A stretch of 64,000 nt of DNA from an uncultured Gammaproteobacteria bacterium (GCA_964648865.1 CAZYLV010000001.1:18476-82475), one strand, 5' to 3'; positions 7,655-64,000 are shown, counted from the stretch's first letter. Made by a program: numbers and translations. The notes: generated from the sequence alone by a model not told the origin.

Positions 7655-7996
7655 CTAGAGGAGGCGCCGCAGGAGCGCCGCGCCGTCCACGGTGAGGGCG
7701 TGGGCGGCGAGCACGTCGTCGGCGCTGACGGGATCGGATTCGCGGAAGCGGAGGACGTCCTCGTAGCTGAGGTCGGTGACGAGCCCCACCGAGGACACGC
7801 CCACGCTCGAGAGCAGCACCAGCGCCAGCACGGCGTGGCCGCAGCCCGCGCACGAGAGATGCACGAGATGCGCGTCGTCCTTGGCGCCGACCATCTGCGC
7901 GGCCTCCGGACCGTAGGCGGCCTGACAGAGAGGGCAGCGCGTCAGGACGCGCGCCCCGTCCTGGTCGGGACGACGGTCACGGCGGCGGTTCGGCAT
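7655..7996 (-). CDS. Hypothetical zinc-ribbon protein (CPLC...CAGC).
   Basis: ORF with a four-Cys motif. Located immediately upstream of rplY. Confidence 0.45.
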   Translation of the reverse strand: MPNRRRDRRPDQDGARVLTRCPLCQAAYGPEAAQMVGAKDDAHLVHLSCAGCGHAVLALVLLSSVGVSSVGLVTDLSYEDVLRFRESDPVSADDVLAAHALTVDGAALLRRLL

Positions 7997-8037
7997 GGGT
8001 TTGGGTTCCCCTCAAGGGTAGCCCAACGCGCGGGACC

Positions 8038-9174
8038 TTACCACTCGCGCCCCAGCACGTCAATGGTCTGGAGGTTTGCCGACCGTTGGCGCACGGCGAC
8101 GCTCTGCAGGATGCCGACCAAGGCCATGGAGGCGATGAGCGAGGAGCCGCCGTAGGAGATGAAGGGCAGGGCGATGCCGGTGACCGGCATGAGCCCCATG
8201 TTCATGCCGACGTTGATGGCCACCTGGATGGTGAAGAGGATGGCCACGCCCGAAGCCACGTAGACGGTGAAGGTGTCCGTGGCCTGCCGGGCCAGGCGCA
8301 ACGCCCGCCAGACGACGAGCGCGTAGAGGCCGAGCACCACGGCCACGGCCACGAACCCGAGCTCCTCCGCGACCACGGCGAAGATGAAGTCCGTCTGCGC
8401 CTCAGGCAGGAACTTGAGCTGGCTCTGCGAGCCGAACCCGAGCCCGCGGCCGAAGACGCCGCCGGAGCCCACCGCGATCACCGACTGCGTGAGGTTGTAG
8501 CCGCGGCCCAGCGGGTCGCGGGACGGGTCGAGGAAGGTCAGGATGCGCTCCTGCTGGTAGGGCTTGAGGGCGAACGTCCAGCCGAGCGCCGCCGTGGCCA
8601 CGGCCAGCCCCAGAAGCGCCACGATGTAGGTCTTGCGGGTGCCCGAGAGCAGCAGCATCGCCACCCAGGCGGAGAGCAGCACCATGGCCGAGCCGAAGTC
8701 CGGCTGCATCAGCGTCAACCCGACGAGGACGAGCGCGCCGATGCCGCTGCCCGCCAACGAGCGCAGGTCGCGGCGGTAGGCGTGCGCGGAGAAGTAGCGC
8801 GCCAGGAAGATGACCAGCACGATCTTGGCGGCCTCGACCGGCTGGAAGCTCCAGCCGGCGATGTTGAACCAGCCGGTGGTGCCGCGCACGGTGGTGCCGA
8901 AGAAGAGCACGGCCACCAGCAGCGCCGCGCCCAAGAGGTAGAAGACGCGCGCCGCCGGCTCGAAGGCCCGATAGTTGACCGCGCCGACGGCGAACATCAG
9001 CACCAGCCCGATGCCGAAGGCCACGGCCTGCTTGATGAGTCCGGAGGAGTCGGGACGCGCCTGGGAGAGGGTGACGCTGGCGATGGCCGCCATGCCGATC
9101 AACACCAGCGAGACCGTCGCGGCGAAGAGCACCCAATCGAAGTCGCGGACGGCGCGGAGGGTCCGGCGGAGCAT
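8038..9174 (-). CDS. SEDS-family peptidoglycan glycosyltransferase (FtsW/RodA).
   Basis: Polytopic membrane protein with FtsW/RodA motifs (NxGMNMGLMPVTGIALPFISYGGSS). Confidence 0.85.
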   Translation of the reverse strand: MLRRTLRAVRDFDWVLFAATVSLVLIGMAAIASVTLSQARPDSSGLIKQAVAFGIGLVLMFAVGAVNYRAFEPAARVFYLLGAALLVAVLFFGTTVRGTTGWFNIAGWSFQPVEAAKIVLVIFLARYFSAHAYRRDLRSLAGSGIGALVLVGLTLMQPDFGSAMVLLSAWVAMLLLSGTRKTYIVALLGLAVATAALGWTFALKPYQQERILTFLDPSRDPLGRGYNLTQSVIAVGSGGVFGRGLGFGSQSQLKFLPEAQTDFIFAVVAEELGFVAVAVVLGLYALVVWRALRLARQATDTFTVYVASGVAILFTIQVAINVGMNMGLMPVTGIALPFISYGGSSLIASMALVGILQSVAVRQRSANLQTIDVLGREW

Positions 9175-9189
9175 ACGTGCCGATCCTAG

Positions 9190-12171
<2,982 letters not shown>

Positions 12172-48537: not shown

Positions 48538-49338
48538 ATGGCGGAGGAACTCACCATCGACGGTCCCGGCGCCGAATTCGCGGCGGCCGCGGACCTCACC
48601 CGCGCGCGCCTGCAGGCGCAACGCGCGCAACCTTCCCCGCCCCCGGCGGCGCTGCTCGAGGCTGCTGCGGCGGATGAAGAGGAGCAGCTCCTGGCCGAGG
48701 AAGAAGCCGAGCAGGACGCCCGCCGGCTGCTCGCGCGCTCCCGCCGCGCTGCCGGCGCGCGCGGCGGTGCCGACGAGGGCGCGGCATCACTGGGCTCGGA
48801 GCTCACCAGCTACGCGGAGGAGCTCATCGAAGTCATCACCTTCTTCGTGCAGATCGAGACCATCATCGTGCCGTTCGCGCTCTTCTTCAAATGGTCGCTG
48901 CAGTTCTGGGGCGGGAACCTCGGCCTCATGCCCAGCCTGATCGGCCCGGCCGTGAAAGGGCTGGAAAAGGTCGCGGAAGCCGCATCGGCAGGCACCAAGA
49001 CCGCCGCCAAGGCGGGCTCCACGGGCGTGACGCAGGCCACCGGCCAGACCGCGAGCGCCTCCGGCGGAGGCGGCCTGCAGTCCGCCGCACAGCAGCTGGC
49101 AGGCGGAGGCGACGAGGGCGTCAAACCCATCTCCATCGGCCTCATCTTCCTGACCACGCTCATCTGGATCGCCCTTGGCGTCCTGATCGTCGCGAACTTC
49201 CTGGTGGTCGTCGCCGTGCCGCTTCTCCTGGCCGGCGGCGCGGCCGGCGTCTTCGTGGGCGTCTGCTCCGCGCTCGGCGACCTTTGCACAAACGAGACGT
49301 TCTCGAGCATCATAGAGTGGTTCTCGTCCATCTTCTAG
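48538..49338 (+). CDS. Hypothetical membrane protein with multiple TM helices and a Gly/Ala-rich loop.
   Basis: ORF starting 6 nt after the clpC stop. Confidence 0.5.
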   Translation: MAEELTIDGPGAEFAAAADLTRARLQAQRAQPSPPPAALLEAAAADEEEQLLAEEEAEQDARRLLARSRRAAGARGGADEGAASLGSELTSYAEELIEVITFFVQIETIIVPFALFFKWSLQFWGGNLGLMPSLIGPAVKGLEKVAEAASAGTKTAAKAGSTGVTQATGQTASASGGGGLQSAAQQLAGGGDEGVKPISIGLIFLTTLIWIALGVLIVANFLVVVAVPLLLAGGAAGVFVGVCSALGDLCTNETFSSIIEWFSSIF

Positions 49339-49343
49339 CGACT

Positions 49344-50558
49344 ATGCTCAGGAGGATCCTCGTCATCGCGGCGTTCGCGGCATTCACCCTCAGCATGGGG
49401 TTCGCCTTGTGGTGGTTCTTCTTCCGTCCGCCCACGGAACGGCTGCCGACGGTCGTCACCAACGCCAACGTCGCACCGCCGACGGGGCTCCCGGGCGCCG
49501 GCGTCGGACTCCCCGGCGCGGTCAACGCGCCGCCGGGCGGCGCGCCCCCTCCGGCTGCGCGCATCGCCAGCGGCGGGTTGACCCTGGCCGCGGCCGTCAC
49601 CCCCATCGCCGTCGACGCGGCGTCGCTCTCCCCCGACGGCGACGGGGTGCGGTTCTACGATCCGGACGAAGGCAAGTTCTACCGCGTCGATCCGGACACC
49701 GGGGAACGCACGGCGCTCTCGGACAAGCGCTTCCCCGACGTCGAGACCGTGGCCTGGGCGCCGACGGAAGACAAGGCGGTGCTGGAGTTCCCGGATGGCT
49801 CCAACGTGATGTTCGATTTCGGCTCGCAGCGCCAGGTGACGCTGCCCAAGCACTGGGAGGAGTTCCAGTTCTCCGCCGACTCGCGCAAGCTGGCGAGCAA
49901 ATCGCTCGGCATCGACCCGTCCAACCGTTGGCTGGTGGTCTCCAACGCCGACGGCTCGAGTGCCGTGCCCATCCAGGAGCTCGGCAACAACGAGGCCAAG
50001 GTCAACGTCAACATGTCCCCGACCGGACAGGTGGTGGCCTTCTCACGGACCGGCGAGGCGCAGGGCTTCGGCCGTCAGGAGATCCTGCTCATCGGCCAGA
50101 ACAAGGAGAACTTCAAGGGGCTCGTCGTCGAGGGGCTCAACTTCCAGGGCCAGTGGGCGCCGGACGGCAAGCGCCTGCTCTACAGCGCCGTCTCCCCGAC
50201 CGACGACTACCGCCCGATGCTCTGGGTCACCGATGCCTTCGGCCAGGACATCGGCAACAACCGCCGCAAGCTCAACCTCAACACCTGGGCGGACAAGTGC
50301 ACCTTCTCCGGCACGGCGACCCTCTTCTGCGCGGTGCCGCGCGAGCTGGAACGCGGCGTCGGCCTGGAACGGCGCATCGCCGACAACGTGCCGGACGACC
50401 TCTACAGCATCGACCTGGCCACCGGCGCGCGCCGGCTCGTCGCCCGTCCGGACTCGGACTCCACGATGACGCAGCTGATGGTCTCGCCGGACGGCCGCAC
50501 CCTGACCTTCGTCGAGCAGGGCTCGAACATCCTGCGGCAGATCCGTCTGGCGCCGTAG
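49344..50558 (+). CDS. Membrane-anchored TolB-like / PD40 beta-propeller protein.
   Basis: N-terminal TM helix and repeated beta-propeller-like segments (SPDG...). Confidence 0.5.
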   Translation: MLRRILVIAAFAAFTLSMGFALWWFFFRPPTERLPTVVTNANVAPPTGLPGAGVGLPGAVNAPPGGAPPPAARIASGGLTLAAAVTPIAVDAASLSPDGDGVRFYDPDEGKFYRVDPDTGERTALSDKRFPDVETVAWAPTEDKAVLEFPDGSNVMFDFGSQRQVTLPKHWEEFQFSADSRKLASKSLGIDPSNRWLVVSNADGSSAVPIQELGNNEAKVNVNMSPTGQVVAFSRTGEAQGFGRQEILLIGQNKENFKGLVVEGLNFQGQWAPDGKRLLYSAVSPTDDYRPMLWVTDAFGQDIGNNRRKLNLNTWADKCTFSGTATLFCAVPRELERGVGLERRIADNVPDDLYSIDLATGARRLVARPDSDSTMTQLMVSPDGRTLTFVEQGSNILRQIRLAP

Positions 50559-50559
50559 T

Positions 50560-51204
50560 ATGCCGCGACCGCCGCTCGTCGTGCTCTTCCTGTTCTCCCT
50601 CTCGGCGGTCCTGCTCGTGATTTTCGGCATGCTGGTCTTCCGGGACGACGGCCGGCAGCCGCCCGAGCCCGCTCCCCTGCCCGAGACCCGCAGCGCGCCC
50701 GAGGTGACGGTCGCGGACCCGGTGCGCGGCAACGCCGCGGCGGATGCGCCGACGATCGTCGTCTTCGGCGACTACCAATGCGAGTATTGCCGCCAGCTCG
50801 AGACGACGCTGGCCGAGATCGAGGTCGGACGTCCGGACGTGCGCATCGCCTGGAAGAACCTGCCGCTGCGTCTCGAGCATCCCCAGGCCCAATTGGCCGC
50901 GGAAGCGGCGCTCTGCGCCGGCCGCCAGGGGCGCCACTGGGAGATGCACGACCTGCTCATGGGCGTCGCCCTGCCGACGACGGCGGAGCTGGCCGTCCCC
51001 TTGGCCGAGGAGGTCGGCATCGACGCCGAAGCCTTCCGGACCTGTCTGGCGACCGGCGCCACACGGCCGCTCGTGGACCGGACCGTGGAGGAGGCGCTGG
51101 CGCTGGGCGTCGACGGCGTCCCCTACCTCTTCGTCGGCAGCCAGCGCTTCTCCGGATTCGTGGAACCCGCGGCGATCCTTGCGGCGCTCGAGGCGCAACG
51201 CTGA
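50560..51204 (+). CDS. dsbA: DsbA-family thiol:disulfide oxidoreductase.
   Basis: N-terminal TM helix and CEYC (CxxC) active site. Confidence 0.7.
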   Translation: MPRPPLVVLFLFSLSAVLLVIFGMLVFRDDGRQPPEPAPLPETRSAPEVTVADPVRGNAAADAPTIVVFGDYQCEYCRQLETTLAEIEVGRPDVRIAWKNLPLRLEHPQAQLAAEAALCAGRQGRHWEMHDLLMGVALPTTAELAVPLAEEVGIDAEAFRTCLATGATRPLVDRTVEEALALGVDGVPYLFVGSQRFSGFVEPAAILAALEAQR

Positions 51205-51226
51205 GCTGTGCTACAATAGGCCGCGT

Positions 51227-52681
51227 ATGCGGGCGCTCCGATTGTGCGCGGTCCCCGTGCTCGTCGGGGCGCTGTTGTCTCTGCTTGGCGTATCGTCCGC
51301 CGCGGCAGCGCCCGGCGCCATCGGACAGGAATGCCTCTCCGGAGACCGTTGCGATGCCGGACTCACGTGCGTGGACCTGGACGCAGGGGCCGCCGTCGCC
51401 AAGCGTTGCACCAGGACCTGCACGGACACCGGGATCGGTTCGCGCGACTGCCCGGAGCCGACCTCCTGCGTGGACGTCCCCGGTACCGGGCGCTACTGCG
51501 TGGACCTGACGGGCGCGACGTGGGAGGGGAGCTTCTTGACCGACACCGACTCCCCGGGAGGACCTCCCACGGAACCCGCATCCAACAGCAATGTCCCCTT
51601 CACGCCCGTGGCGCCGACGCTCGCGCTGCCCATCCCCACCTTCGGAGGTTTCTCCACCCTGCAGGTGCAGGACGTCGGCGGATCCCGGTTCATCGACATC
51701 CCCTTCGTCGCGGAGTACGTCGTCGCCCTCTACCGATACGCCATCGGGATCCTCGTCACCCTCGGCACCGTCATGGTCGTGGTGGCCGGATTCCAGTACC
51801 TCACGGCGCGCGGCAACGCGTCCGTCATCCAGGCGGCGCGCGGGCGGATCCTCAACGCGCTGATCGGCATCGGCATCGCGCTCGGGAGCTACCTCATCCT
51901 CGCCGCCATCAACCCGGAGCTGGTCAACTTCCGCAACATCCGGGTGAACCTCATCCAGACGGTGGACGTCGAGAGCGTGCTGCGGACGACGAGCGAAGCC
52001 ACCGGTTCCGACAGCCCGACGAATCCCGAATGCGATCCGTCCTCCGGCGGCTACGCGCCCGGCGCGAGCGGATCGTCGGCGGGCGGCGGCAGCTGCCCGG
52101 TCTCGCTCGAGGCCCCGTTCGTCGACGGCGGCGGGCGACGTCCGGAGCGTACCGAGGAATTCTTCCGCGAGTACGGCAGCGCCTCGGTCTCCGGCGGCAC
52201 CCCCCGCGAGCGGGTCATCCGCGCCGCACAGGCGGCGGCCTCCTGCGAACTGGTCATGGGCTCCTGCGGCAACACGGTGGAATCGATCTACGAACTGGCG
52301 GGCGTCCGGCTGCGTACGACGCATGAGATCGGCTCCGAGAACGTCCGCTACCTCCTCAGCATCAACACCTGCGAACGGGGCGACCGCACATGCAAGCAGG
52401 CGGCGCGCTGCTCGGCGTACGACCGTTTCGAAGGGGACATCGACGGATGGCCGGATGCCTGGGCGCGCGAACTGCAGCCCGGGGATGCCTTCTGGATCTA
52501 CAACGCGAACGCGGCACCGGCCGGCCAACACGCCGCCGTCTTCATGGGTTGGGCGGGCGGCGGCCGCGCCAATGTCGTGCAAGGCGGCAACAGCGGTGAG
52601 ACCTGGCGCGTCCGCGGCGGGACCATCTGCATCACGAGCGCCTGCGGCGGCGTGCTCACGAGGACACAGCGGCCGGAGTGA
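51227..52681 (+). CDS. Secreted cysteine-rich protein with an embedded VirB2/TrbC pilin-like two-TM module.
   Basis: Signal peptide, Cys-rich domain, module YVVALYRYAIGILVT...ARGNASVIQAAR...LILAAINPELVNFRNIR, then a second Cys-containing domain. TGtGCTACAAT extended -10. Confidence 0.6.
   Translation: MRALRLCAVPVLVGALLSLLGVSSAAAAPGAIGQECLSGDRCDAGLTCVDLDAGAAVAKRCTRTCTDTGIGSRDCPEPTSCVDVPGTGRYCVDLTGATWEGSFLTDTDSPGGPPTEPASNSNVPFTPVAPTLALPIPTFGGFSTLQVQDVGGSRFIDIPFVAEYVVALYRYAIGILVTLGTVMVVVAGFQYLTARGNASVIQAARGRILNALIGIGIALGSYLILAAINPELVNFRNIRVNLIQTVDVESVLRTTSEATGSDSPTNPECDPSSGGYAPGASGSSAGGGSCPVSLEAPFVDGGGRRPERTEEFFREYGSASVSGGTPRERVIRAAQAAASCELVMGSCGNTVESIYELAGVRLRTTHEIGSENVRYLLSINTCERGDRTCKQAARCSAYDRFEGDIDGWPDAWARELQPGDAFWIYNANAAPAGQHAAVFMGWAGGGRANVVQGGNSGETWRVRGGTICITSACGGVLTRTQRPE
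51594..51975 (+). repeat. Duplicated pilin-like module, copy 1 (about 75% nt identity to 53414-53792).
   Basis: Seen directly. Confidence 0.6.
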
Positions 52682-52726
52682 CGGCGGGCCCGCGGCGGTC
52701 CGCTTTTTTGGTACAATCGTGGGGAT

Positions 52727-54511
52727 ATGACCCGGATGCATCGAGCGCTTACGGTCGCCGCCCTCGCCTGCCTGCTCCTGCCTCCATCTCCGGTCGCCGC
52801 GGAGGGGCGGCGCATCGCCTGCTTGGGCGATTCCATCACCAACCAGTACGGACCGGTCTTCGAGACCGCCGACGGCGAACGGTGCACGGTCGTGGCGCGT
52901 GACGGCGCCTCCACGGGCGCCATCCTTGACCTGTTCCGCGAACGGGTGCTCGGCGGCGGGTTCACCGACCTCATCGTCCGCGCGGGACGCAACGACATCT
53001 ACTCCGGCCGCGGAGTCGGCAACGCCAGGACGAACCTCGGCACGATCTACGAGGAGGCGCGGCGGGCGGGCATGCGCGTCGTCGCCGTGAGCATGCTTCC
53101 CCACAAGGGCTATGCCAGCTGGAACGATTCCGTCCAACGGCAGACGGACGAGCTGAACGCGTGGCTCGCATCGGCCCCGGTGGACCGGTTCGTGGACGCG
53201 GACGCGCACCTGGCCGCATCGGACGATCCGGACCGCCTGAACCTCGCCTACGACCGCGGCGACCACCTGCACCTCTCCAACGACGGGAAATGCGCCTTGG
53301 CGAGCTTCATCGCCGAGCGCGCCTTCGGGGGCTCCGGCGGCTGCTCGCCGAGCGGCCGGAGCTCCCCCGCCAGCACCGGCGACGGAGGCGTCTCCCTCGA
53401 GGAGACCGACACGCCCTTCGAGCAGATCGTGCCGACGCTCCAGCTGCCCATCCCGACCTTCCCGGGCTTCTCCGACATCCAGGTGCTCCAGGACGGCGAG
53501 AACCGCAGCATCGACATCCCTTTCCTGGCCGAGTACGTCGTCGCCCTGTACCGCTACGCCATCGGCATCATGGTGACGATCGCCATGGTCATGGTCGTGG
53601 TGGGCGGCTTCCAGTGGACGACGGCGCGCGGCAACGCCTCCGCCATCCAAGAGGCCAGGGACCGCATCACCAACGCCGTCATGGGCATCGTGCTGGCGCT
53701 CGGCAGCTACGCCATCCTGGCCGCCATCAACCCCGAGCTCGTCAATTTCCGCAACATCCGCATCGACCTCATCCGGCGGCGCGAGGTCATCTACCGGGAG
53801 AACGGCGGCATCGAGGAGGGTTGCCGCGGCGGCAGCTGCGGGACCCGGCGGCCGATCGCCAATACGGACTTCGACGAGCTCTTCCAGCGCTACGCCGGCT
53901 GCGCCGGGGTGGACTGGCGCATGCTCAAGGCCGTGTCCTACATCGAATCCGGACTGAACCCGGAAATCGTCAACCGCTACGGCTTCGTGGGCCTTTTCCA
54001 GATCGCGCCGCGCTTCTGCCACCTCTCGCGCCAGACCTGCACGGAAGAGGCGCTGCTCGACCCGGAGATCAACACCTACGTCGCCGCCACCCAGCACCTG
54101 CGCAACGGCGCGCGTATCGTCCGCGACACCTGCCCGAGCATCACGGACGCCCACACCTTCGCCACCCTCATGTACTACGCGCACAACAGCGGCGCCGGGG
54201 CGCTGCGCGCGGTGCTCAACCCGCGGCCGAGCCGCTACCTGCCTGAGGGTGGCGCCGGCTGCACCAACGACCTGGAGGTGCTGACCCGGACCGCCGCGAC
54301 CTTCCAGCGCAATTTCCGCCCCGACATCCCCAACGCCGAGGGCCGCATGACGACCGCCCGCCGGGTCGGCGACCGGGCGCGCGAGCTCGGCGTCACGGAT
54401 CCGCTCGCCGACGGCTCCTGCCCGTCCGAGCCCGCCCCCGGCAGCCGGTCGTCCTCGAGTGACGCTCCGGAACCCGGCGTCGGCGGCGGTCCAGGCACCT
54501 CCGAACTCTGA
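52727..54511 (+). CDS. Secreted multidomain protein: SGNH/GDSL hydrolase, VirB2/TrbC pilin-like two-TM module, SLT lytic transglycosylase.
   Basis: GDSITNQ (SGNH block I), the conserved module, and SLT motifs (YIESGLNP, GLFQI). TGgTACAAT extended -10. Confidence 0.65.
   Translation: MTRMHRALTVAALACLLLPPSPVAAEGRRIACLGDSITNQYGPVFETADGERCTVVARDGASTGAILDLFRERVLGGGFTDLIVRAGRNDIYSGRGVGNARTNLGTIYEEARRAGMRVVAVSMLPHKGYASWNDSVQRQTDELNAWLASAPVDRFVDADAHLAASDDPDRLNLAYDRGDHLHLSNDGKCALASFIAERAFGGSGGCSPSGRSSPASTGDGGVSLEETDTPFEQIVPTLQLPIPTFPGFSDIQVLQDGENRSIDIPFLAEYVVALYRYAIGIMVTIAMVMVVVGGFQWTTARGNASAIQEARDRITNAVMGIVLALGSYAILAAINPELVNFRNIRIDLIRRREVIYRENGGIEEGCRGGSCGTRRPIANTDFDELFQRYAGCAGVDWRMLKAVSYIESGLNPEIVNRYGFVGLFQIAPRFCHLSRQTCTEEALLDPEINTYVAATQHLRNGARIVRDTCPSITDAHTFATLMYYAHNSGAGALRAVLNPRPSRYLPEGGAGCTNDLEVLTRTAATFQRNFRPDIPNAEGRMTTARRVGDRARELGVTDPLADGSCPSEPAPGSRSSSSDAPEPGVGGGPGTSEL
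53414..53792 (+). repeat. Duplicated pilin-like module, copy 2.
   Basis: Seen directly. Confidence 0.6.
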
Positions 54512-54550
54512 CGCCTTGCGCCGCCGCTGTAGGGCTGCTGAAATGGCAGC

Positions 54551-55879
54551 ATGCCCAAAAGCGCTCCCCTCTTCCGCTGCGGCAACTGTGATGCCCAGTT
54601 CCCCAAATGGAGCGGGCGTTGTTTCGGCTGCGGCCGCTGGGGGACGGTCGAGGAGAGCGCGCCGGCCCCGCCTGAGGCCGCCGGCCGACCGACCGCCGCG
54701 GCGGCGAAGAGCCTGCCCGCCGCACAGGTCGCCGGCCGCGCCCCGGAGCGCGTGCCCACCGGCAGCGCGGAGCTCGATCGGGTGCTCGGCGGGGGGCTCG
54801 TGCCCGGCTCGCTCGTGCTCGTCGCCGGGGAGCCCGGGGTCGGCAAGTCCACGCTGCTGCTCTCGCTCGCCGAGCGCCTCGGCCGACCCGTGCTCTACGT
54901 CTGCGGCGAGGAATCGCCGGAGCAGATCGCCCTGCGCATGCGGCGCATGGGCTGTGCGGGCGAGCGGCTCTCCTTCCTCACCGAGACCGACGCCGCCGTC
55001 GTCGCCGCGACGGCCCGCGCAGAACGCCCGGCGCTCGTCATCGTCGACTCCGTGCAGACCCTGCGCGCCGCGGAGGGCGGCGGCGAGCCCGGCGGCATCG
55101 GGGAGCTGCGCGCCGCCATCGCCCGGCTCGCCGAGGTCGCCAAGAAGGACGGCATCACGACGCTGCTCATCGGGCAGGTCACCAAGGACGGGAGCGTGGC
55201 CGGCCCCAAGACGCTCGAACATCTCGTCGACGTGGTGCTGACCGTGGAGGGCGACGGCGTGCGCCCGCTGCGCATGATGCGGGCGGCAAAGAACCGCTTC
55301 GGCTCGAACCGCGAGGTGGGGCTCTTCGAGATGGCCGACCGCGGACTCGTCGACGCCGCGGACGTCCACGCCGCCGCCCTCGACGCCCGCGCCGCGCCCG
55401 TGCCCGGGACGGCCATGGCCGTGGTCCGTGAAGGCAACCGCACCTTGCTCCTCGAGGTGCAGGCGCTGACCAACAAGACGGCCTTCGGCTATCCGGTGCG
55501 TCGCGCCTCCGGCTTCGACACCAACCGGCTGAACGTGCTGCTCGCGGTGCTCGAGCGCCGCGGCGGACTGTCGCTCGCGCAGCACGACGTCTACGTCAAC
55601 GTCGCCGGCGGACTGAGCCTCGAGGAGCCGGCGGCCGACCTGCCGGTGGCCATGGCCATCGCCTCCTCCGCCCTCGGCACGGCCTTGCCTGCGCGCACCG
55701 GGCTCTACGGCGAGATCGGCTTGACCGGGGAGATCCGGGCGGCCCCGGACGCCAAGGAGCGCGCCGCCGACGCCGCACGCCTGGGGCTCACGGAGACCCT
55801 CGGCCCTGCGACCCTCGGCGACGTCCGCGCCGCCATCGCCTGGCTCAAAAAGAAAAACGCGCCGCAGGGCGGCGCATGA
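54551..55879 (+). CDS. radA: DNA repair protein RadA/Sms.
   Basis: Zinc finger CGNC...CFGC and Walker A GEPGVGKSTLLL. Confidence 0.9.
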   Translation: MPKSAPLFRCGNCDAQFPKWSGRCFGCGRWGTVEESAPAPPEAAGRPTAAAAKSLPAAQVAGRAPERVPTGSAELDRVLGGGLVPGSLVLVAGEPGVGKSTLLLSLAERLGRPVLYVCGEESPEQIALRMRRMGCAGERLSFLTETDAAVVAATARAERPALVIVDSVQTLRAAEGGGEPGGIGELRAAIARLAEVAKKDGITTLLIGQVTKDGSVAGPKTLEHLVDVVLTVEGDGVRPLRMMRAAKNRFGSNREVGLFEMADRGLVDAADVHAAALDARAAPVPGTAMAVVREGNRTLLLEVQALTNKTAFGYPVRRASGFDTNRLNVLLAVLERRGGLSLAQHDVYVNVAGGLSLEEPAADLPVAMAIASSALGTALPARTGLYGEIGLTGEIRAAPDAKERAADAARLGLTETLGPATLGDVRAAIAWLKKKNAPQGGA

Positions 55880-61186: not shown

Positions 61187-61776
61187 AGGTCGCCGCTGCG
61201 GCGGAATGCCAGGGTCAGCGTGCGGTAGTCGACGGTCGGCTGGTCGTCGCCGGATTGGGTCGAGCGCTGCGCGGCGACCGTGACCGTGGCGCGGCCGCCG
61301 GTCGCGTCGAGGGATGCGAGCGTCGTGGAGACGGCGCGCGTGGTCACGCCCACGTACCCGTCCCCGCCGCCCCCGGCCGAGCGGGCCTGGGCGATGGTTC
61401 GCTCCGTTGCCTCGCGCATCGACGCCGTCATGAGCGGATAGAGGTCGACGAGGTTCTGGAAGTCGGCCTGGTTGGAGTAGGTGCCGAACCGCTCTGCGAA
61501 CTGCCCGGCCGAGGAGACGAGCCGCTGCTCGAGGATCTCCTGATCCGAGGCGCGGGTGAACGTCTCGGCGGGTGCGGCGGGCGCGGACGCCGTCGGGACG
61601 TTGGCGTTGACCTGCGGCAAGCCTCCGGCCGGAGCGAGCGACGCCGTCGGCGTCGGCGCTTCGGCGGCGGGCTCCTCGGGCGCCGGCGCCGGACGCAGCA
61701 GGACGGCGGCCACGGCCGCCACCACGGTGACGAACACGACGACCCCGGCAACGATCAAGAGCATCCGCCGGCTCAT
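61150..61776 (-). CDS. Hypothetical membrane-anchored protein, a possible VirB8-like component.
   Basis: N-terminal TM helix and Pro/Ala linker. ATGA overlap with the upstream VirB4 gene. Confidence 0.45.
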   Translation of the reverse strand: MSRRMLLIVAGVVVFVTVVAAVAAVLLRPAPAPEEPAAEAPTPTASLAPAGGLPQVNANVPTASAPAAPAETFTRASDQEILEQRLVSSAGQFAERFGTYSNQADFQNLVDLYPLMTASMREATERTIAQARSAGGGGDGYVGVTTRAVSTTLASLDATGGRATVTVAAQRSTQSGDDQPTVDYRTLTLAFRRSGDLWLVDSATWSAQ

Positions 61777-63671
61777 ACGCCGCCCTCCTGTTCGGCGAGC
61801 TGCTGCTGGAACTCCTTCTTGGCCTGCTCGATCTCAAGCAGCTGGCGCGGATCGGTGGTGATGACCTGGTCCTCGGCGTACGAGGCGACGATCTTGATGG
61901 CGGCGTGCTTCTGGCCGGCGAAGAAGATGCCCTCGCCCACCCCGCTCTCGAGCAGCAGGTACTTCTCCCCCTGCGTGAGCAGGAAGGTCTTGGTGACCAG
62001 CTCGATGGAGGCCGGCGACTGCTTGAGCAGCAGCTGGATGGAGGAGTTGGTGACGATGGCCTGCCCGTAGGGCGAGGTCAGGAAGTCGTTGACGTCCTGG
62101 GTGATGGTGGTCACCCCGAGGTAGTACTTGCGGCAGCGTTTGACGAGCGCGAAGACGAACTTGGCCGAATCCTCCTGCTGCATCAGCCACCAGGCCTCGT
62201 CGATCACGAGGATGCGCCGCTTGCGCTCCGAGCGCACCACGTTCCAGATGTAGTTGACGATGCTGTAGATGGCCAGCGGCCGCAGCTCGTCTTCCAGGTC
62301 GCGCACCGAGAAGATGACCAGCGTGTTGCGGATGTCGACCGTGGTCGGCGAGTTGAAGAGCCCGGCGAAGGTGCCCTCGGTGTACTTCTTGAGCCGTTCC
62401 ACCAGGTCGCCGGATCCCTCCATGCCTTGGAGGACCTCCTGGAAGTCCTGGAAGATCGGCGGCTCGACGCGCGCCAGGTCGACGCCGGGGACGATGTCCT
62501 TCTTGGCGTAGGTCTCGAGCAGCGCCCGGTCGATGATGGAGTCCTCGGCGGTCGTCAGCTTGCCGCCGAGCATCAATCGGACGAGACCCTTCAACGTGAT
62601 GACGGCGCTGCGGATGATGTCCTCCACGGAATACTGCTCCCCCACCGGCCGGGGCAGCTCGAAGGGGTTGATCTTGGAATCCGAGGCCAGCGAGATGTTG
62701 ATGTACGTGCCGCCGACGGCGTCCGAGAGATGCTTGTATTCCATCTCCGGGTCGATGATCAGCACCTCGGAGCCGAGCATCAGCGACCGCAGCACCTCGA
62801 GCTTGACGGCATACGATTTTCCGGCGCCGGAGGTCGCGAACACGACCATGTTGGCGTTCTGGAGGGAAAAACGGTCGAACAGGATGAGCGAGTTGTTGTG
62901 GCGGTTGATGCCGTAGAGGATGCCGTTGTCCGACGTCAGGTCCGCCGAGGTGAACGGGAAGCTCGAGGCGATCGGCGAGCTGTTCATGTTGAAGGTCACC
63001 TGCAGCTCGTCGTTGCCGAGCGGCAGCGTGGAGTTGAAGCCCTGCTCGGCCTGGTAGAAGACGCGCTTGGAGTAGATGAGCTTGGCGCCGAAGACGTTCT
63101 CGATGTCGAGCGAGAACTTGTCCAGCTCCTCCTTGCTCTTGCCGTAGATCGTGATGTACAGCGCGAACTGGAAGAAGTGCTCGACGCCCTGCGTAAGGTC
63201 GTCGCGGAGCTTCTCGATGTCCCGCAGCGCCGTCTCCCGGAGCGGATCGCGCGGCGCGCCCTTCTCGGCATCGGAGAGGATCTGCGCCTCGAGGGTGCCG
63301 ACCTTGTTCTTGAGCTGCTTGAGGATGACGTGCGCCTTGACGGGGTAGAAGAACATCCCCACGTCGAGCATCTGGTTGATGTTGAGGATGGGCGTGAACC
63401 ACCCCACGCCCACGTAGCGCGGATAGGTGACCACGAAGACGGTCCGCACGTAGAGGTCACCGAGCAGCACGAAGGACGGCTCGACCTTCATGGCCGCGGG
63501 GGCGATGAGGTCGCGGATGGAGACGGTGCCTTTCCGGTAGACACGCTCCTCCTCGAGCGCCTCCTTCTCCACGGCGACCTTCTTTGCGGCTTCCGTGTCC
63601 GTCACCAAGGTCCCGCCCACCTCGACGGGGGCCCGCTTGCCGCGCAGCGCTTTGAACGGGTTGATGGCCAT
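61773..63671 (-). CDS. VirB4/PrgJ-type conjugation/T4SS ATPase.
   Basis: Walker A FATSGAGKSY and Walker B VIDEAWWLM. Confidence 0.8.
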   Translation of the reverse strand: MAINPFKALRGKRAPVEVGGTLVTDTEAAKKVAVEKEALEEERVYRKGTVSIRDLIAPAAMKVEPSFVLLGDLYVRTVFVVTYPRYVGVGWFTPILNINQMLDVGMFFYPVKAHVILKQLKNKVGTLEAQILSDAEKGAPRDPLRETALRDIEKLRDDLTQGVEHFFQFALYITIYGKSKEELDKFSLDIENVFGAKLIYSKRVFYQAEQGFNSTLPLGNDELQVTFNMNSSPIASSFPFTSADLTSDNGILYGINRHNNSLILFDRFSLQNANMVVFATSGAGKSYAVKLEVLRSLMLGSEVLIIDPEMEYKHLSDAVGGTYINISLASDSKINPFELPRPVGEQYSVEDIIRSAVITLKGLVRLMLGGKLTTAEDSIIDRALLETYAKKDIVPGVDLARVEPPIFQDFQEVLQGMEGSGDLVERLKKYTEGTFAGLFNSPTTVDIRNTLVIFSVRDLEDELRPLAIYSIVNYIWNVVRSERKRRILVIDEAWWLMQQEDSAKFVFALVKRCRKYYLGVTTITQDVNDFLTSPYGQAIVTNSSIQLLLKQSPASIELVTKTFLLTQGEKYLLLESGVGEGIFFAGQKHAAIKIVASYAEDQVITTDPRQLLEIEQAKKEFQQQLAEQEGGV

Positions 63672-63674
63672 AGC

Positions 63675-63989
63675 TCAGGCTTCCTCCACGCGGAGCTTGC
63701 CGACGTCGGTGAGCTTCTCGGCGTCGGAGACGATGGGGTTATAGGCGTTGTAGTAGAGCTCGATGAGCGACTGCGTGTCGAGCATCACCGCGCTCACCCC
63801 CATCGAGCCGAGGTTCGCGGCCACCGTATCGACACGCAGCAGCAGGTCCTTCCGTCGTTCCTGGAAGCGCGCCTCCTGGAGCCGGATGGTCAAGGCCGGC
63901 GTGATGGCCTCCTGCATGCGCTGGAAGAACCCCTTGCGCTTGTTGGTGAACGGGTCGAACGGGACGACCACGTAGAAGCGCTTGCTCAT
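63675..63989 (-). CDS. Hypothetical small protein upstream of the VirB4 gene.
   Basis: ORF with an ATG at 63989, 1 nt from the VirB4 start. Confidence 0.4.
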   Translation of the reverse strand: MSKRFYVVVPFDPFTNKRKGFFQRMQEAITPALTIRLQEARFQERRKDLLLRVDTVAANLGSMGVSAVMLDTQSLIELYYNAYNPIVSDAEKLTDVGKLRVEEA

Positions 63990-64000
63990 GATCTGCCCGA

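Follow-up and report, generated by a model that had tools for sequence, protein, structure and literature searches.

Patescibacteria, the bacteria of the Candidate Phyla Radiation (CPR), need a type IV secretion system (T4SS) and arrays of VirB2-like pilins to grow on their hosts (PMC12102498, PMC10633639, PMC12857230). The pilins of CPR and other monoderm bacteria (PF18895; TrbC/VirB2, PF04956), including those of the Saccharibacteria arrays, are free-standing proteins of ~100-130 amino acids (aa), usually encoded beside virB4 in tandem paralogous copies, and have a two-helix hairpin with a short basic loop (PMC12102498, PMC10633639). Canonical VirB1 wall hydrolases are rarely found beside the CPR T4SS and are often lacking next to CPR clusters (PMC12102498). 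In Gram-positive T4SSs the VirB1-like hydrolases, such as PrgK of pCF10, TraG of pIP501, TcpG and CD419, are membrane-tethered enzymes in which an SLT (lytic transglycosylase) domain is accompanied by a CHAP/NlpC-type or M23 domain; they are required because the monoderm wall has to be opened locally (PMC12102498). Here we describe a pilin-like module that is repeated in two adjacent genes, A and B, in a 64,000-nt stretch of DNA recorded as an uncultured Gammaproteobacteria bacterium (GCA_964648865.1, CAZYLV010000001.1:18476-82475; hereafter the window, with positions counted from its first nucleotide). An earlier note, made from the sequence alone, had proposed a tandem duplication of this module with domain shuffling around it. 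Related loci are designated by L numbers and proteins by P numbers.

The module resembles the CPR pilins in its two-helix hairpin, short basic loop and sequence family, and in both cases the taxon is Patescibacteria, as judged for the window below, and the copies are tandem paralogs. Known CPR pilins are free-standing, whereas the hairpin here is internal to enzymes (484 and 591 aa) and has other domains before and after it; it also carries extra conserved N- and C-terminal extensions and lies 7 kb from virB4 among housekeeping genes. The two copies are 69% identical in protein sequence, compared with a mean of 25% and a maximum of 54% among paralogs in CPR pilin arrays (PMC12102498).

Like the Gram-positive VirB1-like hydrolases, the products of genes A and B are predicted to be membrane-tethered multidomain wall hydrolases. 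The former are set apart by description, having a simple N-terminal transmembrane (TM) segment and being encoded in the T4SS operon, whereas the anchor here is a pilin-homologous hairpin between two predicted extracytoplasmic domains and both genes lie outside the virB4 operon. Gene B also recalls the Ape1-type pairing of an SGNH O-acetyl-peptidoglycan esterase with a lytic transglycosylase. Such esterases supply the free C6-OH on N-acetylmuramic acid (MurNAc) that the transglycosylases require. In gene B, in contrast to the described pairing, both domains occur in one polypeptide and flank a membrane hairpin, and the esterase specificity is putative; the SLT-type orthologue in L016, unlike gene B, has no SGNH domain.

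The reading that we favor, and consider likely, is that the module is a pilin-derived anchor cassette in two adjacent Sec-exported, Cys-rich wall hydrolases whose genes arose by tandem duplication at a DsbA-RadA locus. The family of the module, the CPR pilin arrays and their essentiality, and the membrane-anchored multidomain VirB1-like hydrolases of Gram-positive T4SSs are already known. What differs is the position of the hairpin inside hydrolases, between two predicted extracytoplasmic domains, its own extensions, the very wide distribution of this architecture and the rapid exchange of enzyme heads. We found no discussion of pilin-hydrolase fusions in papers on CPR T4SSs and pilins or by full-text searching, a limited literature that is no proof of novelty. 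As the architectures are visible in public domain databases, they extend what is already known and do not form a category of their own.

The repeated module

The DNA segments 51594-51975 and 53414-53792 are identical at 286 of 379 aligned positions (75.5%), with a single 3-base gap near the ends, in agreement with the earlier estimate of about 380 nt at roughly 75%. Pairwise blastn gave 77.9% identity over 344 nt (E 2.6e-78). At the protein level, BLASTP of gene A against gene B returned one significant, gapless high-scoring segment pair (HSP; 88/128 identical, 69%; 81% positives; E 9e-54). The peptide strings quoted in the earlier note occur exactly as given. Every remaining HSP between the two proteins had an E value of ~1 or worse, so the flanking domains are indeed unrelated.

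The similarity extends well beyond low-complexity hydrophobic stretches. Copies A and B are identical at 23/37 positions of the N-extension, 25/33 of the TM1 region, 11/14 of the basic loop (ARGNASxIQxARxR), 16/22 of the TM2 region and 13/19 of the polar C-extension (PELVNFRNIR). Both segments lie inside long plus-strand open reading frames (ORFs) whose GC content at third codon positions (GC3) is that of genuine genes at the 69% GC of the window. The further copies whose search the note had proposed do not occur within the window: tblastn detected no third module, and neither did a profile hidden Markov model (HMM) of 177 modules run with filters off over the six-frame ORFs of the window (next best E 1.3).

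Chance or artefact, in the form of compositional similarity between hydrophobic helices at 69% GC or of a duplication made in assembly, has a negligible probability. A GC content of 69% does raise background identity and the core of the module is hydrophobic, but the BLASTP E value was obtained with composition-based statistics, the polar segments are as strongly conserved as the helices, and the copies differ at 24.5% of DNA positions. The A-B pair occurs on independent contigs from six sequencing runs, and also in the diverged relative L015, and is therefore not an assembly artefact. Both the low-complexity and the assembly explanation were rejected on these grounds (E value, polar conservation and independent contigs).

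Table 1. Coordinates of genes A and B, their domains and selected neighbors in the window.
Feature	Position (nt)	Strand	Details
DsbA-like thiol:disulfide oxidoreductase	50560..51204	+	Pfam DSBA 67.8 bits, Thioredoxin_4 50.1 bits; 22-nt gap to gene A
Gene A	51227..52681	+	484-aa ORF; exact protein P0001 in public collections; signal peptide (aa 1-29), Cys-rich N-domain (aa ~30-95), module (aa 124-246), linker, C-terminal Cys/His domain (aa ~290-484)
Module copy A	51596..51964	+	Profile HMM, aa 124-246, E 7e-49; corresponds to 51594-51975; N-extension PFTPVAPTLALPIPTFGGFS...IDIPF; TM1 (nt 51737-51793); basic loop TARGNASVIQAARGR; TM2 (nt 51848-51904); then NPELVNFRNIRV
C-terminal domain of gene A	52094..52678	+	Unannotated family; invariant Cys (GSCG) and His (GxHxAIF)
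Terminator-like GC-rich hairpin and T-run	52683..52704	+	Consensus pattern match; 8-bp stem, 6 GC pairs, tail TTTTTGG
Gene B	52736..54511	+	591 aa as called in L001, L003, L004 and P0154; signal peptide, SGNH/GDSL hydrolase, module, SLT lytic transglycosylase with Cys-containing tail
SGNH/GDSL domain	52820..53287	+	Pfam PF13472 (Lipase_GDSL_2), aa 32-187, 38.5 bits (gathering threshold 32.9)
Module copy B	53414..53782	+	Profile HMM, aa 227-349 of the 591-aa form, E 3.7e-54; corresponds to 53414-53792; TM1 (nt 53555-53611), TM2 (nt 53672-53728)
SLT family-1 lytic transglycosylase domain	53879..54211	+	Pfam PF01464, aa 385-495, 38.7 bits (gathering threshold 21.3), E 8.1e-10
VirB4-like T4SS ATPase	61773..63671	-	Pfam P-loop_TraG 90.2 bits, plus AAA_10 and DUF87

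Relationship to T4SS pilins and predicted topology

On profile evidence, the shared segment of ~125 residues is a divergent member of the Pfam family T4SS_pilin (PF18895), the VirB2/TrbC-like pilins of Patescibacteria. The term "pilin-like" used previously is therefore apt in the sense of T4SS pilins of the VirB2/TrbC type and not of type IV pili. The module consists of a Pro-rich/beta N-extension, two TM helices with a short basic loop between them, and an NPELVxFR strand. PF18895 is matched by 97 of the 104 best relatives at E<=1e-3 (best E 1.2e-51), three of which also match TrbC/VirB2. Proteins from the syntenic orthologue loci reach the threshold of the family (L019_a, 32.9 bits; L008, 29.7 bits), as does a protein from L012 (29.9 bits). 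When a profile of 48 modules was compared by hhalign with six free CPR pilins of 112-126 aa from the L013 array, all of them PF18895 members, the match had a probability of 99% (E 4.8e-18) over module columns 43-124. The module of gene B additionally shows a weak NCBIfam match to the mycoplasma "Mbov_0395 family pilin-like conjugal transfer protein" (E 0.029).

The AlphaFold2 (AF2) model of module A (mean predicted local distance difference test score, pLDDT, 80.7) comprises an extended N-terminal segment, a beta-hairpin (residues 30-42), a helix of 34 residues (44-77), a 4-residue loop, a helix of 31 residues (82-112) and a strand (122-126). In the model the N- and C-extensions form a small beta-sheet capping the two helices. 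The terminal strand plausibly pairs with the N-terminal beta-hairpin, which would explain the joint conservation of the two extensions. The features typical of PF18895, two hydrophobic helices and a short positively charged loop, are present in both modules according to the AF2 model of copy A and to hydropathy.

Hydropathy analysis placed hydrophobic segments at aa 4-22, 171-189 and 208-226 of gene A, and the hairpin peaks of gene B at aa 274-292 and 313-331. Each protein has a signal-peptide-like N-terminal segment and exactly two more TM segments, which form the hairpin. With the basic loop taken as cytoplasmic, both flanking regions are predicted to be extracytoplasmic. Extracytoplasmic termini and a cytoplasmic loop are the topology of VirB2 pilins in the membrane pool.

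A two-TM hairpin beside muralytic domains bears a superficial resemblance to a prophage lysis cassette of the holin-endolysin kind, in which the hairpin would permeabilize the membrane and release the attached hydrolase. This is very improbable here, given that a signal peptide and an extracytoplasmic N-domain precede the hairpin, that the module is homologous to PF18895 pilins, and that chromosomal synteny is kept across lineages with ClpC identity down to ~59%. The neighbors checked against Pfam are housekeeping or T4SS genes with no phage families among them, a check that did not include a dedicated phage-family search. The lysis cassette was rejected on the basis of the signal peptide, the pilin homology and the conserved chromosomal synteny.

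Flanking domains of genes A and B

Gene B has an alternative in-frame ATG at 52727, which would give a protein of 594 aa. All 13 of its Cys residues lie outside the module. The SGNH blocks are intact in its translation: block I GDS (CLGDSIT), block III GxND (GRND) and block V DxxH (DHLH). By analogy with enzymes of the Ape1 type, this domain may act as a peptidoglycan O-acetyl esterase. The SLT motifs are also intact, with the catalytic Glu in ES (YIESG), GLFQ and YYAHNSG, and the domain shares 46% identity with the corresponding region of L016_b (E 2e-66).

Gene A has 18 Cys, none of them in the module. Its C-terminal domain had no match in Pfam or NCBIfam, and sequence profile searches against the PDB gave chance matches only. 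The same domain family is found in ~24 of the 155 collected module proteins, including P0004, P0005, P0007, P0009 and P0010; among the best matches, no other single domain accompanies the module as often. Nine positions are invariant over 23 sequences (C40, C90, G95, C97, P159, L166, G169, D170 and H185). The AF2 model of the domain is of good confidence (pLDDT 83.4; predicted TM-score 0.84), and the domain is possibly a cysteine peptidoglycan peptidase or amidase related to CHAP and NlpC-P60. It looks like an undescribed CHAP/NlpC-like family of ~200 aa, whose substrate in gene A would presumably be peptidoglycan. In L014 (4488-5951), the public call of the family member P0004 starts at an internal GTG and drops 122 in-frame upstream codons; these encode a signal peptide and a Cys-rich N-domain resembling those of gene A and L018_b.

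The candidate terminator (Table 1) sits in the 54-nt gap between the two genes, so the paralogs may not be strictly co-transcribed.

Distribution of the module and exchange of its partners

In a word-indexed homologue search, module B alone had no match, gene A retrieved 8 proteins and the 48-sequence profile retrieved 26. Because the word index was too sparse, the census was carried out by exhaustive HMMER with a two-sequence module profile against 1.84 billion representative proteins. At E<=1e-3 it identified 23,781 clusters of related proteins, of which 5,513 remained at E<=1e-10. Of the 150 best relatives, 148 continue for 100 aa or more beyond the C-terminal end of the module, 72 have an N-domain as well, and 132 have a signal-peptide-like start. 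The partner domains found among the best relatives are SLT, VanY/M15, M23, NlpC/P60, C39_2, Amidase_2, 3D and GDSL.

Several relatives (P0008, P0011, P0014, P0018, P0020, P0037, P0042 and P0067) carry 2-4 tandem pilin-like hairpins per polypeptide, with 6-8 predicted TM helices and, in some, a C-terminal SLT-like domain. Such concatenated pilins do not fit easily with classical pilus polymerization from single subunits.

The slot between DsbA and RadA in the relatives holds one to three module genes with varying enzyme domains. In the window and in L015 it contains an A-type gene and an SGNH-module-SLT gene. L016 has an A-type gene and a module-SLT gene without the SGNH domain, while L007 has an A-type gene and a module protein with an unassigned Cys-rich C-domain. 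The latter type recurs in L018, together with an A-type and an M15/VanY-type gene. A single gene occupies the slot in L014 (A-type), L008 (M23 type) and L009 (Peptidase_C39_2 type); there are three genes in L019 and two in L022/L023.

The phylogeny of the modules is incongruent with that of the enzyme domains. The A and B modules of the window and L015 form a clade with 88% neighbor-joining bootstrap support, and the alternative grouping with L016 orthologues of the same enzyme type received 0%. The three modules of L019 are 88-97% identical and monophyletic at 100% bootstrap, while identity between the A-type C-domains of L019_b and L019_c is no more than 26-32%. In L014 the module matches that of L007_b (87% identity) but the C-domain matches L007_a (87% identity); a module clade of L014 with L007_a has 1% bootstrap support. 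The module tree, as reconstructed from these sequences, follows the genome and not the enzyme type. Tandem duplication with domain exchange around a conserved core, as the earlier note had suggested, is supported by these comparisons. The data fit either replacement of enzyme domains or episodic conversion of modules between paralogs and do not separate the two.

The duplication itself is not recent. Synonymous differences are at a plateau (proportion of synonymous differences, pS, 0.34-0.6) in all comparisons, and even orthologues reach it, the genome being rich in GC3. Measured against the turnover of silent sites the duplication is therefore old, and recent gene conversion is not supported; older conversion would look like lineage-specific duplication followed by domain replacement. 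Between the window and L015, module identity is 89% for A-A, 85% for B-B and 68-75% for A-B, and the A/B split must consequently predate the divergence of the two.

No other part of these proteins is as constrained as the module, whose nonsynonymous divergence (dN) in L019 is 0.05-0.09 at saturated pS. Purifying selection and the size of the family lend support to the description of the module as a functional cassette. These observations bear on whether genes A and B encode housekeeping autolysins, in which the hairpin would be only ancestrally related to pilins and would act as an ordinary two-helix anchor, the enzymes remodeling the cell's own wall during growth and division with no connection to a T4SS. 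The very large family (23,781 clusters) and an enzyme set that covers the usual autolysin specificities are consistent with such a role, as are the location of the genes amid conserved ClpC, DsbA, RadA and RecG and the existence of non-syntenic module loci without a nearby virB4. Autolysins are usually stable, yet enzyme type and copy number here vary between close relatives. The hairpin, N-extension and C-strand are also conserved far beyond the needs of a simple anchor, as the L019 values and the synonymous plateau illustrate. This conservation and the likeness of modules from the same genome both suggest a specific shared binding partner. We therefore regard the autolysin explanation as tentative and rather doubtful.

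Cysteine content and adjacency to DsbA

A DsbA homologue lies directly upstream of the module genes in the syntenic loci L007, L008, L014, L016, L018, L019 and L021-L024. It also directly precedes module genes at the non-syntenic loci L010 (8788-9390), L011 (1016-1507) and L012 (9174-9641), so that the adjacency is found in three independent genomic contexts (the DsbA-RadA locus, L010/L011, and L012). Across the top 150 relatives, the frequency of Cys is 4.25% outside the modules and 0.1% inside them. Together, the adjacency and the excess of cysteine in the flanking domains suggest that DsbA and the module genes are functionally paired. In its own right, the cysteine content of the domains flanking the module is ~4x the usual level.

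Proposed function and possible connection to the T4SS

In the pilin-derived anchor model that we favor, the N-terminal part of each protein would be exported first, after which TM1 would re-enter the membrane, the basic loop (ARGNAS..AR.R) would remain cytoplasmic and TM2 would lead back out. The N- and C-terminal enzyme domains would then both lie outside the cytoplasmic membrane, tethered beside the peptidoglycan. Gene B would tether an SGNH esterase together with an SLT lytic transglycosylase, and gene A a Cys-rich domain together with a Cys/His domain that is probably CHAP/NlpC-like. The DsbA encoded upstream probably oxidizes the many cysteines of both proteins, which would make A and B dependent on it. 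From established enzymology, the esterase may remove the MurNAc O-acetyl groups that block the transglycosylase. The two genes would have been born by tandem duplication at the conserved DsbA-RadA locus, with repeated exchange of the flanking enzymes and purifying selection on the module. Activity on the wall, topology and localization are predictions for both products.

The strong conservation of the hairpin and its extensions, together with the likeness of modules within a genome, suggests that lipid is not its only contact and that it binds a specific partner, for which further module copies, free pilins and VirB4/VirB6-type machinery are candidates. A link to the nearby VirB4 T4SS is plausible in view of the pilin homology, the conserved position 7 kb from virB4 and the frequent lack of a neighboring VirB1-type hydrolase at CPR T4SS clusters (PMC12102498). 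It is possible, though on balance we doubt it, that through the anchor the enzymes also dock to the T4SS or to the pilin pool encoded 7 kb away.

Several observations weigh against this reading as a whole or against its T4SS component. Neither module of the window reaches the PF18895 gathering threshold of 26.6 bits (gene A, 17.3 bits, E 0.005; gene B, 22.6 bits, E 1.1e-4), and membership in the family therefore rests on transitive and profile evidence. A Foldseek search of the PDB with the hairpin model returned generic helical hairpins only, with no VirB2/TraA structure in the top 50; the pilin assignment is accordingly one of sequence profiles and not of fold. For the C-terminal domain of gene A, the top Foldseek matches in the PDB are mostly CHAP-domain wall hydrolases but are weak (E 0.1-1, TM-score ~0.2), which makes the CHAP/NlpC-like assignment a lead rather than a result. 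Between the locus and virB4 lie RadA, RecG and further genes, on both strands, weakening the link to the T4SS, and gene order in the clade is conserved overall, so the proximity of virB4 may lack functional meaning. The 10 kb around each of the non-syntenic module loci L010-L012 yielded no virB4, and no free small pilin genes were found in the window or in the syntenic loci. The relatives with 2-4 hairpins per chain also speak against a T4SS link.

Some of these points bear equally on pilus display, in which the module would be a true polymerizing pilin that VirB4 extracts, with its fused domains, into the T4SS pilus as a minor or tip subunit alongside free pilins, the filament carrying wall-degrading enzymes to the host surface. 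The module is homologous to CPR VirB2-like pilins, and both termini of VirB2-type pilins are extracytoplasmic, which matches fusions at both ends. The synteny that places a virB4 cluster 7 kb away is conserved, and selection directed at the host would fit the rapid replacement of enzyme types at a single locus. The CPR T4SS and pilin arrays are moreover essential for epibiotic growth, and VirB1-like hydrolases rarely occur beside virB4 (PMC12102498, PMC10633639, PMC12857230). Domains of 100-250 aa at both ends are, however, hard to fit into helical pilin packing, and the occurrence of 2-4 modules per polypeptide in some relatives is better suited to a membrane-resident bundle than to an extruded subunit. 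Free pilin genes are missing from the window and syntenic loci, as noted above, and genes A and B lie among housekeeping genes outside the virB4 operon. We consider pilus display unlikely. That the hairpin is still a VirB4 substrate, with the proteins incorporated in a T4SS pilus or mounted on its tip and interchangeable peptidoglycan-cutting enzymes breaching the host wall, we likewise hold to be quite improbable.

The pilin fold is thus the constant element in a very large group of multidomain wall hydrolases, whose heads are swapped among close relatives while the hairpin stays nearly constant. These proteins are testable candidates for how Patescibacteria open their own or their host's wall, and they define a portable anchoring cassette along with an unannotated Cys/His domain family. 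If pilus display were true, they would constitute an enzyme-armed conjugative-type pilus, which would explain why the CPR T4SS and pilins are essential in epibiotic growth.

Gene neighborhood and organism

The order of genes in the window is LemA, an HtpX-like M48 peptidase, ClpC, a TM protein, a PD40/TolB-like protein, DsbA, gene A, gene B, RadA, a small ORF, RecG, several unannotated ORFs and VirB4. From ClpC through RadA all genes are on one strand with gaps of <=54 nt. Two syntenic, conserved genes lie between ClpC and DsbA. They encode a protein of 266 aa (48538-49338, +) that matches no family and has several hydrophobic segments and an N-terminus rich in Ala and Glu, and one of 404 aa (49344-50558, +), with an N-terminal TM segment and weak matches to PD40/TolB-like beta-propellers. 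The virB4 gene, on the opposite strand, follows 7.3 kb downstream of gene B, beyond RadA, RecG and others, and its cluster runs past the end of the window, where a partial gene is found (63675-63998, -). The gene order as far as virB4 is conserved in L007 and L016, with TraC-like and PrgI genes following virB4 in L016, and is partly conserved in the more distant L022/L023 (ClpC ~59% identical). A metagenome scan contributed 8 mostly short loci, which were used to extend the synteny.

The window comes from a high-GC Patescibacteria (CPR) bacterium. The nearest genome is the metagenome-assembled genome "Patescibacteria group bacterium FW602_bin.41" (ClpC 78%, RadA 69% and VirB4 92% identical), and the related contigs derive from groundwater metagenomes. 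VirB4 is thus far more conserved between this genome and the window than ClpC or RadA.

The window also has many very long antisense ORFs, for example one of 1542 aa (50957-55585, -) opposite genes A, B and RadA; these are stop-poor shadows typical of 69% GC and are not genes, because their GC3 pattern is unlike that of coding sequence. The L013 array comprises six tandem small PF18895 pilin genes (7922-10183; products of 112-133 aa) on a contig of 38% GC. The records of L013 and L009 are both labelled "uncultured Gammaproteobacteria", and L009 has the CPR-type DsbA-module-RadA synteny; the two labels look like mis-binning or misclassification.

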